Below, piece by piece: positions 34,100-38,314 of a DNA stretch of 64,000 nt (within the stretch, counting starts at the first letter, position 1; every line of letters starts with the position of its first letter). A program made the translations under genes and the position numbers. The DNA lies in NCBI GenBank assembly GCA_963784695.1, contig CAWARZ010000006.1:545282-609281 (forward strand), written 5' to 3'. Source of the DNA: an uncultured Chloroflexia bacterium (GTDB lineage Bacteria > Chloroflexota > Chloroflexia > QHBQ01 > JAICKM01). Under the pieces are notes generated by a model. The model saw nothing but the letters and a program-made list of their open reading frames with translations. It was not told where the DNA came from and did not search any database.

Positions 34100-34980
34100 A
34101 TCCGCTCGAATTCGACCAGTAGATGGTCGCCCAGCGCCCAGGCGGGCCAGACGGCCGCCCAGTGGCGGTCGAGCCGGGCCAGGCGGCGGAAGAGGCCCGG
34201 GGCGCGGCGCACCAGACCGTCGAGATAGAGCGGCGGCAGCAGCCAGGGAAGGCCCTGGCGGCGCACCACGCGAAAGTGGGGCGCGAAGGCACGCGCGGTG
34301 ACGCCCGGCGTCCAGTAGTAGCAGGTGAAGCGGATGTCCTGCCAGTCGCCGCGCGCGGTCCCTTCCGCCTCGCCGCCCCAGCGGCGGAAGGCGCGGCCGG
34401 GGTCGCGAGCGCGCAGGTACCAGGCGGTCTCCCAGAGGCAGTAGCGGTTGAGGAGCGAGAAGACCAGGCGCCCGCCCGGGCGGATCAGGCGCGCCAGCCC
34501 GGCGGCCACGGGCGCCAGCGACGGCTCGCAGTTGAGCGGCCCGAGGCTCGAATAGGCGCCGTCGAAGCTGCCGGGACCGTACTCGGCGGCGAGATCGCCG
34601 ATGCGATGCGCGGGCAGCAGCCGCGGCGTGATGCGGTCTGCCAGCGCCGCGGCCCGCCCGCCCGGCGCCAGCTTGGCCGCGAGCGCGGCGATCATACCCG
34701 GCGCCACGTCGGTCGCGACGACGTGCACACCGCGCGCGGCCAGGTGGGTTGCCTCGATGCCGGTGCCGCAGCCGATCTCGATCACGCGGGCGCCCGGCGC
34801 GAAGGCGGCGTCGAGCGTGGCCAGGCTGCGACGGCGCGTCCAGCGCGCCAGCGGATTCCGCGCCTCGTCGGCGTCGAACAGCGGCGCGGCGAGCGTGAAG
34901 GCCCGGGCGGATGTCCCTGCCGGGGGCGTCTGTAGCGCGGCATCGCCGGTCGGTGTTGTCTGCTCGCTCTGATCGGTCAT
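34096..34980 (-). CDS. Class I SAM methyltransferase
   Basis: VIEIGCGTGIEA, TDVAPGMI, FDGAYSSLGPLNC. Confidence 0.88.
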   Translation of the reverse strand: MTDQSEQTTPTGDAALQTPPAGTSARAFTLAAPLFDADEARNPLARWTRRRSLATLDAAFAPGARVIEIGCGTGIEATHLAARGVHVVATDVAPGMIAALAAKLAPGGRAAALADRITPRLLPAHRIGDLAAEYGPGSFDGAYSSLGPLNCEPSLAPVAAGLARLIRPGGRLVFSLLNRYCLWETAWYLRARDPGRAFRRWGGEAEGTARGDWQDIRFTCYYWTPGVTARAFAPHFRVVRRQGLPWLLPPLYLDGLVRRAPGLFRRLARLDRHWAAVWPAWALGDHLLVEFERI

Positions 34981-35086
34981 GCCCACCTGCCTTCGGGTCG
35001 GCGCCGCCCGGCTTGACAGGGCTCGGGCGTGCCGTCTACGATTCCCCGGTAACCGCGCGCCGGCCGCGCGGGAAAGGAGCCCGGTT

Positions 35087-36481
35087 CTGATCGCGCCCGC
35101 CCCGGCCGCGGCGCCTGCCGCGCGGCCCGCCACTCCAGTCCGCCCTGCCTGGGGCGACCGCGCGCGCCTCGGCGCGTTCGCCGTGCTCGCCGTGGCCGTG
35201 ACGCTCGACCATTATACCCTGGATGTGGCCGGCGCGCGGATCAAGCTGGAGCACGTCGTCCTGGCCGCGCTGCTCGCTCTCGGCGCGGTCGCCGCGCTGC
35301 GCGGTCGCCGCCCGCCGATCCCCGGTGCCCTGCTCTGGATCCCGGCCTGGCTGCTCGTAACGGCGCTGGCCTCCCTCGTGAACGCGCCTGCCCCGGCGAC
35401 CAGCCTGCGGCACACAGCCATGCTGGCGCTCGTGACGAGCGGCGCCTTCGTCACCTACGCGCTGCTCGACAGCCCCGCCCGGCTGCGCCGGGCGGTGGGG
35501 CTGCTGGCGGGGCTCGGCGTGCTCGAAGCCCTGGCCGCGCTCGGCGCCGCGGGTCTCGCCCAATTGGGCGGCACCTGGGGCACCCAGCCGGGCTTCATCG
35601 GCACGCGCGTGCCCTACGGCACGCTCTGGGAGGCCAATATCCTGGGCAGCTACCTGGCGGCCGCGGGCACGCTGCTTGTCTTCCTGCTGCTCGCCGCCCG
35701 CCGCCTCCGCCCCGCACTGATCCTGGCAGGTGGGTTAGCGGTCCTGCTCGTCGCGCTGGGCCTGAGCGCGACGCGGGCCGCGTGGGTTGCCTTCCCGCTG
35801 GGCGTCGCGGCGGGCCTGGCGGCGCTGCTGTTGCTGCCCGGCGGCTTACCCCGCCCGCGCCGCCCCGTCGCCGTGAACACCGCGCTGGGCGCCGGGGCAT
35901 TCGGGCTCGCGGTCGCGGCGCTGCTGCTGACGCCCGCCGTGCTGCCGCGCGCCGCGCAGGGCCTGGCCGGGCGAACGGCGCTGGCTATCTATGACCCGCG
36001 CACCGACCCCTCGGTGGCCGCGCGGGCCGGCAGCCTGAGCACGGCCTGGGCGGGCATCGCGGCGCACCCGATCCTCGGCAACGGCGCGGGCAGCTTCGCT
36101 GCCGTCTATAGCGACGCGCAAGGGGAGCCGGGCTGGCTCAGCAATCTGGAGCTCCACCTGCTTTACGACAGTGGTCTGCTCGGCCTCGGCCTGGTGCTGG
36201 CCGGCGCAGCCCTGCTGGTGGCCGGCGCCTGGCGGGGGTTGCGGCGCGGCGGCGCGGCGGCGGCCGGGCTGGTCCCGAGCCTGGCGGCCCTGCTGGCCGT
36301 GGGCGTCGTGCTCGGCGTGGCCTACCAGACGACGGAGGCAACGTGGTTGGGCTACACCTGGGTGTACGCCGGCTTGCTGGCGCGTGCGGCGCAACTGGCG
36401 AACGCGTCTGCCCCGGCGGGCTCCGGCATAGCGCGCGCGGGCCAGAGGCCGGGCACCGCCAGGGGCGACCTCCGTCCATAA
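35087..36481 (+). CDS. O-antigen ligase/polymerase (Wzy_C) family membrane protein
   Basis: About 12 TM helices; GTLWEANILGSY, SATRAAW, HPILGNGAGSF, HLLYDSGLLG. The start is uncertain; CTG at 35087 follows AAAGGAG. Confidence 0.8.
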   Translation: MIAPAPAAAPAARPATPVRPAWGDRARLGAFAVLAVAVTLDHYTLDVAGARIKLEHVVLAALLALGAVAALRGRRPPIPGALLWIPAWLLVTALASLVNAPAPATSLRHTAMLALVTSGAFVTYALLDSPARLRRAVGLLAGLGVLEALAALGAAGLAQLGGTWGTQPGFIGTRVPYGTLWEANILGSYLAAAGTLLVFLLLAARRLRPALILAGGLAVLLVALGLSATRAAWVAFPLGVAAGLAALLLLPGGLPRPRRPVAVNTALGAGAFGLAVAALLLTPAVLPRAAQGLAGRTALAIYDPRTDPSVAARAGSLSTAWAGIAAHPILGNGAGSFAAVYSDAQGEPGWLSNLELHLLYDSGLLGLGLVLAGAALLVAGAWRGLRRGGAAAAGLVPSLAALLAVGVVLGVAYQTTEATWLGYTWVYAGLLARAAQLANASAPAGSGIARAGQRPGTARGDLRP

Positions 36482-36594
36482 CGCCGCGGGCCGCCGAGAA
36501 GTCGTGGGAGTGCCGAGGGGATTGGGGAGGATCCAGAGCGCCGCCGGGATCCCGACGACCGGTCGTCGCGGACCCCGGCGGACGCCGGGCAAGC

Positions 36595-36736
36595 AAAAGC
36601 CCCGAACAGACCTTGCGGTTCATCCGGGGCTCTGCCGCTCCACCGAATTGCTTCGGGGAACAACCCTCGTCACGATATCCTGAGCTTCGCGTCGCCCTTG
36701 CGGGTTCCGTTCCGCTGAGTACTTCGTTTCGCTGGT
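36595..36736 (-). ncRNA. Putative structured small RNA, copy 1
   Basis: Follows TTGACT-17-TAATAT (36766-36771 and 36743-36748). Hairpins CCC-GCAA-GGG and CCGAA-GCAA-TTCGG; terminal AGCCCCG...CGGGGCTTTT terminator; conserved with copy 2. Confidence 0.7.
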
Positions 36737-36787
36737 GACCCTATATTAGCACGATTCGGCTACTGAGTCAATAGATGCGATCGCAGG

Positions 36788-36819
36788 TTATACACCACTT
36801 TATCCACGACTTATCCACA
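36788..36819. promoter_or_regulatory. Cluster of DnaA-box-like 9-mers upstream of ncRNA copy 1
   Basis: TTATACACC 36788, TTATCCACG 36800, TTATCCACA 36811. Confidence 0.6.
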
Positions 36820-37063
36820 GGCTCCGGACCCGCTTCGTTGCTCGGCAGCCTGCCGCGTGGCGCGCGGTGGGGCGCGCGCCCGTGGGCAGCCAGCCGGGTG
36901 GCGGGGGCCGCATCCCGCCCGGCGAGGTGCGCCGGCCGATGGGTTAGCCCGCGCTTCGGGGACGCCACGGCCTCTTGCCACGCAAGAGCGGATCAGCCGG
37001 CGTGCGTCGGCCGGTGCGGTGGTGGGCGGGATGACTGCGGGGCGGAGGCCGGGCGGAAGGCAT

Positions 37064-37210
37064 AACAAAAGCCCCGAACAGACCTTGCGGTTCATCCGGG
37101 GCTTTGTCGCTCCACCGAATTGCTCCGGCGAAACATCCCTGCGTCTCGCGATACCAAACTTCGCGTCGCCCTTGCGGGTCCCGTTCGGCTCAGTATTTCG
37201 GTTCGCTGGT
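37064..37210 (-). ncRNA. Putative structured small RNA, copy 2
   Basis: Follows TTGACT-17-TAGCAT (37240-37245 and 37217-37222). Same hairpins as copy 1 (CCGGA-GCAA-TTCGG keeps pairing via G-U) and an identical terminator core. Confidence 0.7.
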
Positions 37211-37261
37211 AGCCCTATGCTAGCACGAAACGCGCGACGAGTCAAGAGATCGGCCCGCAGG

Positions 37262-37306
37262 TTATACACCACTTTTTCCACAAGTTGTCCACTTGCCGGT
37301 GGATAA
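37262..37306. promoter_or_regulatory. Cluster of DnaA-box-like 9-mers upstream of ncRNA copy 2
   Basis: TTATACACC 37262, TTTTCCACA 37274, TTGTCCACT 37285, and an inverted TTATCCACC at 37298-37306. Confidence 0.6.
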
Positions 37307-37327
37307 CATGCCGCCCCGGCATGACAA

Positions 37328-37356
37328 CGGGGCCGGAGCATCATGCTCCGGCCCCG
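37328..37356 (-). terminator. Perfect hairpin downstream of the DUF4190 gene
   Basis: CGGGGCCGGAGCA-TCA-TGCTCCGGCCCCG. Confidence 0.6.
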
Positions 37357-37377
37357 CGAATACCGCCCGCGCCCGCC

Positions 37378-37884
37378 TTAAGGTGCCGGGGTCGGGACGA
37401 CGGCGGTCAGCGTCAGGATCGCGTCGTTGATGGCGTTGCCGAACAGCGACACGCCCGCGAGGGTGATGATCAGCTCGAGCAGACCCAGCACCAGCGCGAC
37501 GATGCCGAGCACGAGACCGGCCATCGCCAGGCCGCTCCCGCCCTGGGCCGACTGGCGAATCTGATTGCGAGCCATAAAGCCCAGGATCGCGCCGATTGCG
37601 CCGAGCACGATGCTCACAGGAGAGAGGAACACACACAGCGGCAGGAGCGCCAGGATGCTGACGATCAGTGCCACGATCGCCAGCACGTTCGTGCTGCCGC
37701 CGCTCGCCGTCGCGGCAGTATATGTGCCGCCGGGCGGCGGGGTATAGCCGCCGGCCGGCGGGGCCGGCGGAGGCGTGTAGCCGCCACTGGGCGGGGGCGT
37801 GTAGCCGCCGCTCGGGGGTGGCGTGTAGCCGCCCTGGCTGCCTGTGCCGCCCTCGTTGCCCGACGGGGGTTGTCCGTAGCTCAT
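37378..37884 (-). CDS. DUF4190-type membrane protein with Pro/Tyr-rich N-terminus
   Basis: GGYTPPP repeated about 4 times; TNVLAIVALIVSIL...AILGFMARNQIRQS...GSGLAMAGLVLG. Confidence 0.8.
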   Translation of the reverse strand: MSYGQPPSGNEGGTGSQGGYTPPPSGGYTPPPSGGYTPPPAPPAGGYTPPPGGTYTAATASGGSTNVLAIVALIVSILALLPLCVFLSPVSIVLGAIGAILGFMARNQIRQSAQGGSGLAMAGLVLGIVALVLGLLELIITLAGVSLFGNAINDAILTLTAVVPTPAP

Positions 37885-37927
37885 GAACTGGACCCTCCTA
37901 AAGCTAAGTTGATAACACCGCCGTATC

Positions 37928-38314
37928 TCAGAGGCTTTCCGCCAACGCGGCCCCCACGCGCTGCAACTCGAAGCGTGCACGGCCGAGATTGCCGTCCGCC
38001 TGGACGACGAGCAAGAGGAAGTAATCGGGGGTCACCAGCCGGGTGAGGAAGGCGCGCTCCTCGGTTTCGAGGCTGATGGTGCGCAAGGTGCCCCAGTGCG
38101 CGGTGTCCGCGGCGCGGCGCGCGGCCAGCACGAGGTCGGCCAGCTCGACGCCCCAGGCCTGCGGATCCTGCGCGGCCGGCGTGGAGCCGTTCTGCGGCAG
38201 GGTCTTGGCCCCCGTGACCGTCTCGACGGCCAGCCCATCCACGCCCAGCAGGCTGATCGCTACCGCTCCGGGGATTTTCTCGACGGCCCCGGCGAGCAGC
38301 TCGGTCAGATCCAT
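37928..38314 (-). CDS. Roadblock/LC7 (MglB-like) protein
   Basis: IPGAVAISLLGVDGLAVE...YFLLLVVQADGNLGRARFEL. Confidence 0.8.
   Translation of the reverse strand: MDLTELLAGAVEKIPGAVAISLLGVDGLAVETVTGAKTLPQNGSTPAAQDPQAWGVELADLVLAARRAADTAHWGTLRTISLETEERAFLTRLVTPDYFLLLVVQADGNLGRARFELQRVGAALAESL

Follow-up and report, generated by a model that had tools for sequence, protein, structure and literature searches.

What might two tandem copies of a short, highly structured RNA gene be doing at a site where no gene stands in line to be controlled by them? This question is raised by a stretch of 64,000 nucleotides (hereafter the window) from an uncultured Chloroflexia bacterium (assembly GCA_963784695.1, contig CAWARZ010000006.1, positions 545,282 to 609,281), whose minus strand carries two units of promoter, RNA and terminator, with -35 boxes 474 bp apart and U-tails 472 bp apart; an initial annotation of this DNA had reported the pair with this location and spacing, and both units are present. 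We think it probable, while leaving appreciable room for other readings, that the units are independent and complete small RNA (sRNA) genes, enlarged paralogues of an uncatalogued multicopy family, and that their products act in trans by protein binding. As far as sampled, the family is restricted to one order of uncultured Chloroflexia.

Each unit has the anatomy of a gene. A scan of positions 36000-38000 for sigma-70-type promoters returned exactly two sites, those of the two units (shuffled sequences averaged 0.2 sites), and both conform to the pattern TTGACT-17-TGnTAnnAT, in which TG precedes the -10 box; the TTGACT-17 promoters of the initial annotation are thus found as claimed. The predicted transcripts of both copies, of about 146-150 nt, fold into the same three elements, namely a long three-tier hairpin tipped with CCC[GCAA]GGG, a second GCAA hairpin and a terminator hairpin, with minimum folding energies of -61.4 (copy 1) and -62.4 kcal/mol (copy 2) and z-scores of -2.7 and -2.9; for each copy, one of 200 shuffled controls folded as well. 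The three GCAA tetraloop hairpins, including the change from CCGAA to CCGGA that preserves pairing through G-U, are as first described, and so are the U-tailed terminators, in each of which UUUU follows a GCAA-looped hairpin of 13-14 bp (CCCCGGAUGAACC-GCAA-GGUCUGUUCGGGG-CUUUU in both copies). A simple terminator scan missed both of them because of an internal mismatch in the stem.

The transcribed parts of the two copies differ at 24 of 151 aligned columns, all of which lie outside the last 38 nt (the end of the linker, the terminator hairpin and the U-tail) and outside the 21-nt tip ACCCGCAAGGGCGACGCGAAG. Differences within helices are mostly pairing-neutral (G-U to A-U, U-A to U-G, G-C to G-U), two mismatches of copy 1 are base pairs in copy 2, and the lower stem of the second hairpin is retained through a register shift. 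The internal loops of the 5' domain are purine-rich (GGAA/CGAA and AA/CGA) and invariant between the copies. By-eye readings of these loops as K-turns or sarcin-ricin-like motifs were dropped because the sequence requirements were either unmet or not conserved between the copies.

The pair had been taken for an orphan RNA, a description that cannot be upheld. We used two covariance models: R1, built from the two window copies, and R2, built from 22 short type A sRNAs (~70 nt) of related genomes and containing no window sequence. R1 matched 35 of the 40 genomes of the window's order, with 1-12 matches per genome; among 301 genomes of the class, R2 matched 44 (35 from the window's order), with a maximum of 17 matches per genome, and its nine matches outside the order were each single and weak. 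On the window, R2 scored 48.6 bits for copy 2 (37135-37069, E = 3e-11) and 43.1 bits for copy 1 (36662-36597, E = 1e-9), the E-values being those for the window, and these copies were the top R2 matches in their own genome, which holds seven members: the window pair, two in tandem on contig C4, one on C7 and two on C8. Because a model made only from relatives recognizes both copies, together with five more members in the genome, the window RNAs are not orphans; R1 and R2 place them as enlarged members of a multicopy family that extends across the order.

The resemblance is concentrated at the 3' end. R2 lines up the second hairpin, linker and terminator of the window RNAs with the entire short RNA of the relatives, and a BLAST search with one copy against 60 relatives matched the terminator alone. 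The linkers GCGGCAGAG and GCGACAAAG align with the gAACAGAa segment of the model (the family linker being ACARAG, A-rich), and the family terminator is conserved in sequence, as CCGGAUG..-GNRA-..UGUYCGG followed by a U-tail. When written as a regular expression, this terminator matched the sRNA genes and one chance site in the 5.8-Mb genome of the window, and nothing else.

In the relatives, the loci are complete sRNA genes in which a DnaA-box-like 9-mer of the type TGTGNAWAA, 15 nt, TTGACA, 17 nt and TATACT are followed by an RNA of 69-90 nt. This RNA usually starts with YACUUCG and continues with one hairpin, GGAACARAG and a terminator nearly the same as that of the window (CCCGGAUGGUCC-GCAA/GUCA-GGAUUGUCUGGG-UUUU), and longer members of 150-300 nt retain the same ends. 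What varies is the body between promoter and linker: at one extreme it is a 9-bp hairpin with a 7-nt loop, and at the other it is an insert of more than 200 nt. Type A bodies have a 9-bp stem and the invariant 7-nt loop UGYUGAG; type B bodies have a longer stem and an invariant GGUUCGCC tip; type C bodies, from family f3, have GCAA hairpins; type D is the short form of the window's own genus; and type E bodies (YACCA.CGA...), in which purine-rich internal loops surround a 3-bp tip capped by GCAA, come closest to the 5' domain of the window RNAs. The window RNAs start with YACCAGCG, in which a CCAGCG/CGC(A)GG pairing is possible instead of the YACUUCG/CGGAGG helix P1, and a few relatives start with YACCA.CG. 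One of the C8 RNAs (CACUUCGAACGAAGGAUACGGCAACCGAAAGGGCGACCGG..., with an extra GCAA hairpin after it) has the overall layout of the window RNAs, with a purine-rich domain enclosed by P1.

Tandem or clustered copies are common in the family (e.g., G011:C231, G015:C23, G019:C508 and G033:C7), and the contexts of the seven members in the window's genome are unrelated. The initial annotation had allowed that homologues might always sit upstream of a gene; across the loci read, we found no consistent gene downstream of family members. A core 19-mer, CCGCAAGGGCGACGCGAAG, gave at least 120 matches in metagenomes, and R1 was then run on 80 of these loci (L136-L215). Among the matches listed and rescanned, none proved to be a homologue of the long body, and all seven of the higher-ranked R1 metagenome matches whose flanks were read lie inside an apparent coding frame, R-K-G-D-A-K. 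A blastn search of a plasmid collection gave no match.

Several RNAs met during these searches are recorded here in their own right. In genus-g3 genomes, a structured RNA of ~290 nt (L336, G013:C1:109356-109650, minus strand; also L024, L028, L032 and L034) has the family promoter, a CUACUUCGG start at the 5' end, CUUGAAGGACAAAAG with the family terminator at the 3' end and an insert of ~230 nt, and it has no Rfam match. Two genomes of the window's genus (L043 in G005, L300 in G004) share a conserved RNA gene of ~202 nt with a TTGAC-17-GCTACAAT promoter and a family-type terminator, again with no Rfam match, and no counterpart was noticed in the window's genome. On a 179.5-kb viral contig of 42% G+C DNA (IMGVR_UViG_3300005663_000028), R2 gave an isolated match of 38.7 bits over 59 nt (L347:863-921), comprising a small hairpin, an ACACAGA linker and CCGGAUGGUCCGAUAGGGCUGUCCGG-UUUUU; it might represent a relative carried by a phage, or else a convergent terminator. 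One family member, of 162 nt, has a group II intron domain (L030:63-140, G008:C535; RF00029, 58.5 bits) ~1 kb away.

Covariation among homologues had been named as a check on the initial annotation, and compensatory base changes are clear among the short relatives. In type A (alignment A3, 22 sequences), pairing holds in 94.4% of the cells and both sides have changed in 14 of 22 pairs; the covariation score is 0.513, compared with 0.247 in shuffles (none of 500 reached the observed value), and the signal does not survive a shift of the partners by one to three columns. In type B (21 sequences, alignment A4), the corresponding values are 90.3% and 11 of 25 pairs. These compensatory changes, together with the invariant loops within the transcribed part of the relatives, indicate that selection acts on the RNA. 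Furthermore, in the terminators of types A and B, most members retain three consecutive wobble pairs (U-G, G-U, G-U) instead of replacing them by Watson-Crick pairs, which suggests that the G-U-rich hairpin is recognized by something, beyond its function in termination.

If the RNA is what is selected, the main rival to protein binding is that the units encode classical base-pairing "sibling" sRNAs, which would regulate mRNAs in trans, without Hfq, through short antisense contacts of their loops or internal loops. The multicopy, tandem layout with divergent bodies is typical of such RNAs, the invariant 7-nt apical loop UGYUGAG of type A might serve as a kissing seed, and the two window RNAs have identical tips and internal loops. 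However, the window RNAs are nearly all base-paired, with no unpaired run longer than 7 nt in either copy, and the longest such run, at the 5' end, differs between the copies; moreover, their apical loops are all GCAA and thus of the GNRA class, which makes poor seeds, and the order is without Hfq. We therefore consider base pairing as the principal mode of action to be fairly unlikely.

The absence of Hfq was established by searching PF17209, which exceeded its cut-off in none of the 40 genomes of the order and in all five known control genomes; tblastn was also negative. CsrA was sought by tblastn with two CsrA sequences, and no gene was found, the best match lying inside a larger unrelated ORF; GGA motifs are present in the window RNAs, mostly in stems. 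Since the order has no Hfq and the RNAs offer no long single-stranded seed, a structured RNA bound by protein is favored, and the conserved G-U-rich 3' hairpin, the invariant purine-rich loops and the rRNA-type promoter described below together favor one that is abundant and stable. We propose that the window RNAs would act in trans as abundant, stable and almost fully base-paired molecules that bind protein, that the constant 3' module might serve as the handle for a protein other than Hfq, and that the variable body could be the specificity or decoy part.

The initial annotation had noted a likeness to c-di-GMP-I/GEMM aptamers and had proposed, besides an undescribed sRNA family, a free-standing nucleotide sponge; it had also called for a covariance-model search against Rfam, which we ran and which gave no strong match to any known family. 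At gathering score, Rfam 15 found only a tRNA in the whole window. With permissive filters and E <= 10, positions 36400-37400 returned nine weak, scattered matches, none of which spans a unit and among which c-di-GMP-I, 6S, SRP and Chloroflexi-1 do not appear; 29 loci from the relatives and the window's own genome (14 + 5 + 10) matched no relevant family. No Rfam 15 model thus covers a unit, and the relatives share its frame, which bears out the proposal of an undescribed sRNA family. In the literature, we found no description of this family or of sRNAs controlled by DnaA boxes.

An orphaned riboswitch or a free-standing sponge RNA for cyclic dinucleotides, related to c-di-GMP-I/GEMM (RF01051), could account for the loose likeness in the way short motifs are ordered around a GNRA hairpin and for the well-conserved purine-rich core. 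RF01051, however, was matched neither at gathering score nor at E <= 10 in the permissive 1-kb search, and neither was any other family, which leaves the riboswitch and sponge ideas without support. Unlike c-di-GMP-I, the window RNA lacks a two-helix aptamer with a tetraloop-receptor as well as a downstream gene: its 5' domain is a single extended three-tier hairpin with no junction or multi-helix aptamer, and family members have no consistent gene after them. The terminator appears to be constitutive rather than switchable, with no alternative antiterminator fold evident. Such an origin would seem most improbable.

The Chloroflexi-1 RNA had to be considered as well. This motif, which reportedly has a conserved promoter and terminator, resembles the window RNAs in being a Chloroflexi-specific, apparently non-coding, multicopy hairpin RNA. 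Its model, RF01698, which is listed for Chloroflexus aggregans (Weinberg et al. 2010, PMC2864571), matched neither 36400-37400 (E <= 10) nor the loci of the relatives, and the window RNAs are a different family.

The neighborhood of the units (see the table) likewise offers no target in cis. Just past the stop codon of the upstream, co-oriented DUF4190 gene stands a GC-rich hairpin, which attracts several spurious weak Rfam matches and is probably the terminator of that gene itself, separating it from copy 2. No co-oriented gene follows copy 1 or copy 2, and the next gene downstream is convergent (its PF04932 match falls under the cut-off of 31.7 bits). With a probable terminator closing off the upstream gene and a convergent gene downstream, nothing is left to be regulated in cis, and the initial view of free-standing promoter-RNA-terminator units that control no adjoining mRNA is sustained. 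At the syntenic site of a genome of the same genus (L331, G003:C785), the DUF4190 gene and the Wzy_C-like gene are ~50 nt apart and no sRNA gene is present, which means that the window pair is either a lineage-specific gain or was lost in the congener. At that locus, the DUF4190 domain forms the C-terminus of a Ser/Thr-kinase-like protein.

Features of the two units, their surroundings and the other family members of the same genome (window positions unless a contig is named)
Feature	Position	Strand	Basis
Copy 2 box array: inverted TTATCCACC 37306-37298, AGTGGACAA 37293-37285, TGTGGAAAA 37282-37274, GGTGTATAA 37270-37262	37306-37262	minus	
Copy 2 sigma-70 promoter, TTGACT-17 nt-(TG)C-TAGCAT	37245-37217	minus	promoter scan
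Copy 2 RNA, about 145-150 nt, predicted 5' end	37210-37067	minus	alignment, fold, R2 match 37135-37069
Copy 2 5' three-tier hairpin domain, tip CCC[GCAA]GGG	about 37209-37138	minus	fold
Copy 2 second GCAA hairpin, then linker GCGACAAAG	37134-37109 (hairpin)	minus	fold
Copy 2 terminator hairpin, then UUUU 37070-37067	37102-37071 (hairpin)	minus	fold
Copy 1 box array: TGTGGATAA 36819-36811, CGTGGATAA 36808-36800, GGTGTATAA 36796-36788	36819-36788	minus	
Copy 1 sigma-70 promoter, TTGACT-17 nt-(TG)C-TAATAT	36771-36743	minus	promoter scan
Copy 1 RNA, about 142-148 nt, predicted 5' end	36736-36595	minus	alignment, fold, R2 match 36662-36597
Copy 1 5' hairpin domain	about 36735-36666	minus	fold
Copy 1 second GCAA hairpin, then linker GCGGCAGAG	36664-36634 (hairpin)	minus	fold
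Copy 1 terminator hairpin, then UUUU 36598-36595	36630-36599 (hairpin)	minus	fold
GC-rich hairpin GGGGCCGGAGCA-UGAU-GCUCCGGCCCC just past the DUF4190 stop	37325-37356	minus	sequence
DUF4190 membrane protein gene, upstream, co-oriented (context only)	37378-37980	minus	PF13828, E = 8.9e-14
Wzy_C / O-antigen-ligase-like membrane protein gene, downstream, convergent (context only)	34979-36481	plus	PF04932, 27.2 bits
Short members, RNAs of ~80 nt	C4:304525 and C4:305697 (tandem, 1173 bp apart), C7:255484		R2
Long members, ~160 nt, 2.6 kb apart (L324, L328)	C8:186830-187000, C8:189428-189600	minus	R2

The convergent arrangement allows a further reading, in which transcription that partly runs through the copy 1 terminator covers the 3' end of the Wzy_C-like gene in antisense. 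The end of the terminator (36595) and the convergent stop (36481) are indeed only ~115 nt apart, but family members stand in unrelated contexts, conservation within the unit is highest in the terminator, a strong hairpin of 13-14 bp with a UUUU tail, and the same pair of genes occurs in the congener without sRNA genes. We regard a cis-antisense role as very improbable.

Two ORFs of low complexity, 36138-36623 (minus strand, 161 aa) and 36811-37344 (minus strand, 177 aa), overlap the units and are most likely artefacts of the 70% G+C content. The possibility that small proteins are the product, either from ORFs of 14-17 aa ending at the UGA of the terminator stem or from long ORFs starting at the AUG in GGAUGA, where the 161-aa ORF does begin, was rejected as scarcely credible: the copies do not share the start codons of the short ORFs (GUG vs GCG; an AUG made by an indel), the sequence past the terminators is unrelated between the copies, and the AUG is ACG, AGG or AAG in relatives. 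Additionally, long spurious ORFs are expected at this base composition, and no conservation of a codon pattern was seen.

One claim of the initial annotation, that conservation stops outside the unit, does not hold at the promoters. Conservation between the copies reaches ~50 bp upstream of the -35 box (GTGGAWAAAGTGGTGTATAACCTGCG) and takes in an array of DnaA-box-like 9-mers that is shared with the rRNA promoter. Both copies have GGTGTATAA-N16-TTGACT (in copy 2, the 16 nt are 37261-37246) plus 2-3 more boxes, and TGTGGATAA of copy 1 is a perfect DnaA-box consensus. Four of the seven DnaA-box-like matches in the window lie at the two units. A strict combination of box, TTGAC and TAnnnT occurs at only seven promoters in 5.8 Mb. 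Five of them belong to sRNA genes (the window pair and the three short members) and the other two to nrdR and the rRNA operon, and the rRNA array, CTGTGGATAACTCGGTGCATAAAGTGGTGGACA-N15-TTGACA, is almost the same as CTGTGGATAAGTCGTGGATAAAGTGGTGTATAAC-N15-TTGACT of copy 1. The sRNA genes thus use a rare promoter class that is common to the rRNA operon and nrdR and is marked by TGTGNAWAA, the DnaA-box consensus of the organism. The rRNA operon promoter lies at C3:139256-139334 (L256), with the start of 16S rRNA ~240 nt downstream, and the nrdR promoter, which has three GTGGATAA/GTGGAAAA boxes, at C4:95326-95411 (L257), ahead of a ~170-nt leader.

In the relatives, the box is most often GGATGTGGAAAAC, in the arrangement GGATGTGGAAAAC-N15-TTGAC, and in two genus-g3 genomes nine of ten exact TGTGNAWAA-N-TTGAC promoters drive family sRNAs, with none in a reversed-pattern control. 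The relaxed 9-mer TGTGNAWAA occurs 44 times in the 5.8 Mb, eight of them around dnaA-dnaN, and it is found upstream of dnaA in three relatives. Intergenic clusters of 3-4 DnaA-box-like 9-mers were also observed at C6:90610-90650, C3:75432-75483, C3:259021-259075 and C3:267489-267522; no sRNA gene was seen beside these four, two of which flank the dnaA-dnaN region. A reading of the window boxes as an origin of replication (oriC) was rejected because dnaA (C3:261822-263441) and dnaN, with their box clusters, are on another contig (C3:259-267 kb) and the GC skew of the window has no switch.

The boxes might instead matter as DNA: an array next to a strong, short transcription unit could titrate or modulate DnaA, in the manner of datA or DARS, or act as an insulator, with the RNA as a by-product. 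Clusters of at least three boxes within 150 bp are rare (nine in the genome) and occur around dnaA-dnaN and at sRNA promoters, and within the arrays an inverted box accompanies 2-3 direct ones, spaced by ~12 bp. Against such a role stand the compensatory changes and invariant loops of the relatives, which reflect selection on the RNA, the two long C8 members, which keep the RNA frame without boxes, and the genus-g3 members, which have a single box only; we judge it quite improbable. Under the reading that we prefer, in which the RNA is the product, the rRNA-type, DnaA-box-bearing promoter would tie its transcription to growth or replication status, and DnaA binding at the boxes or control by growth rate may be the means.

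A number of points weigh against the preferred reading of trans-acting, protein-binding members of one family. The terminator accounts for 31.2 of the 48.6 R2 bits and the remainder adds ~17 bits in context, the part upstream of the terminator having no significant R2 score by itself; family membership is therefore carried mainly by the terminator, the linker and the promoter architecture, and the family could reflect shared expression parts rather than common descent of whole RNAs. The 5' domain (about 75-110 nt) is found only in the two window copies, and its modeled fold derives from two sequences and thermodynamics. Transcripts, their ends and their abundance are predicted from sequence. 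At the promoter, the two long C8 members are without the GTGGATAA box array, and the loci of family f3 have phased A-tracts, so that DNA bending by such tracts, or UP elements, could explain part of the box motif. Finally, the searches for Hfq and CsrA yielded no partner protein, that for CsrA having been made by tblastn.

Taking the constant frame and the variable bodies together, we speculate on a modular "RNA display cassette", in which a constant frame of DnaA-box/rRNA-type promoter, helix P1, ACARAG linker and a terminator hairpin rich in G-U pairs, to which a lineage-specific protein binds, would carry very different bodies (7 to more than 200 nt) that are inserted and amplified, often in tandem, the window pair being a young, genome-specific body type and DnaA directly controlling the sRNA, rRNA and nrdR promoters. 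We hold this full scheme to be unlikely as it stands; if true, it would represent a replication- or growth-coupled RNA regulatory system of a Chloroflexia order without a described counterpart.

To our knowledge, essentially no regulatory RNAs have been described in Chloroflexia beyond the cultured phototrophs. The family reported here is a new sRNA family, being outside Rfam 15 and not found described in the literature, and its value lies in its size and covariation support together with a conserved 3' handle in a lineage without Hfq, a combination that points to another RNA-binding partner. If DnaA binds the boxes, replication-initiator status would be wired directly to the synthesis of stable RNA and sRNA. 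In addition, models R1 and R2 allow hundreds of unannotated genes to be labeled.

In their mode, as distinct from any membership, the window RNAs recall CsrB/RsmZ, 6S RNA and Ms1, which are likewise highly structured RNAs with a strong promoter, repeated purine-rich (GGA/GAA) motifs, a conserved structural handle and little free seed, and the window RNAs are probably abundant as well. They differ from this group in that tblastn found no CsrA, in that they have no 6S-like central bubble and in that they have no Rfam match. As genes, they are closer to the multicopy families of sibling sRNAs that have their own promoter and intrinsic terminator and often lie in tandem, such as LhrC1-5 of Listeria, Qrr1-5 of Vibrio and PrrF1/2 of Pseudomonas; in both cases, free-standing promoter-RNA-terminator genes occur as several paralogues per genome, in tandem arrays, with divergent bodies on a common frame. 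There is no kinship in sequence or in Rfam, however, and the Chloroflexia order is without Hfq and the window RNAs are almost seedless. Unlike those families, moreover, the Chloroflexia RNAs have a terminator hairpin that is conserved in sequence and contains tandem G-U pairs, a body that may be as small as a 7-nt loop or as large as an insert of more than 200 nt, and a box array shared with the rRNA operon. Thus, whereas multicopy, free-standing sRNA genes are a kind of element already known, the association of a constant frame with a highly variable body, and of both with a promoter array shared with the rRNA operon, is what sets this family apart.

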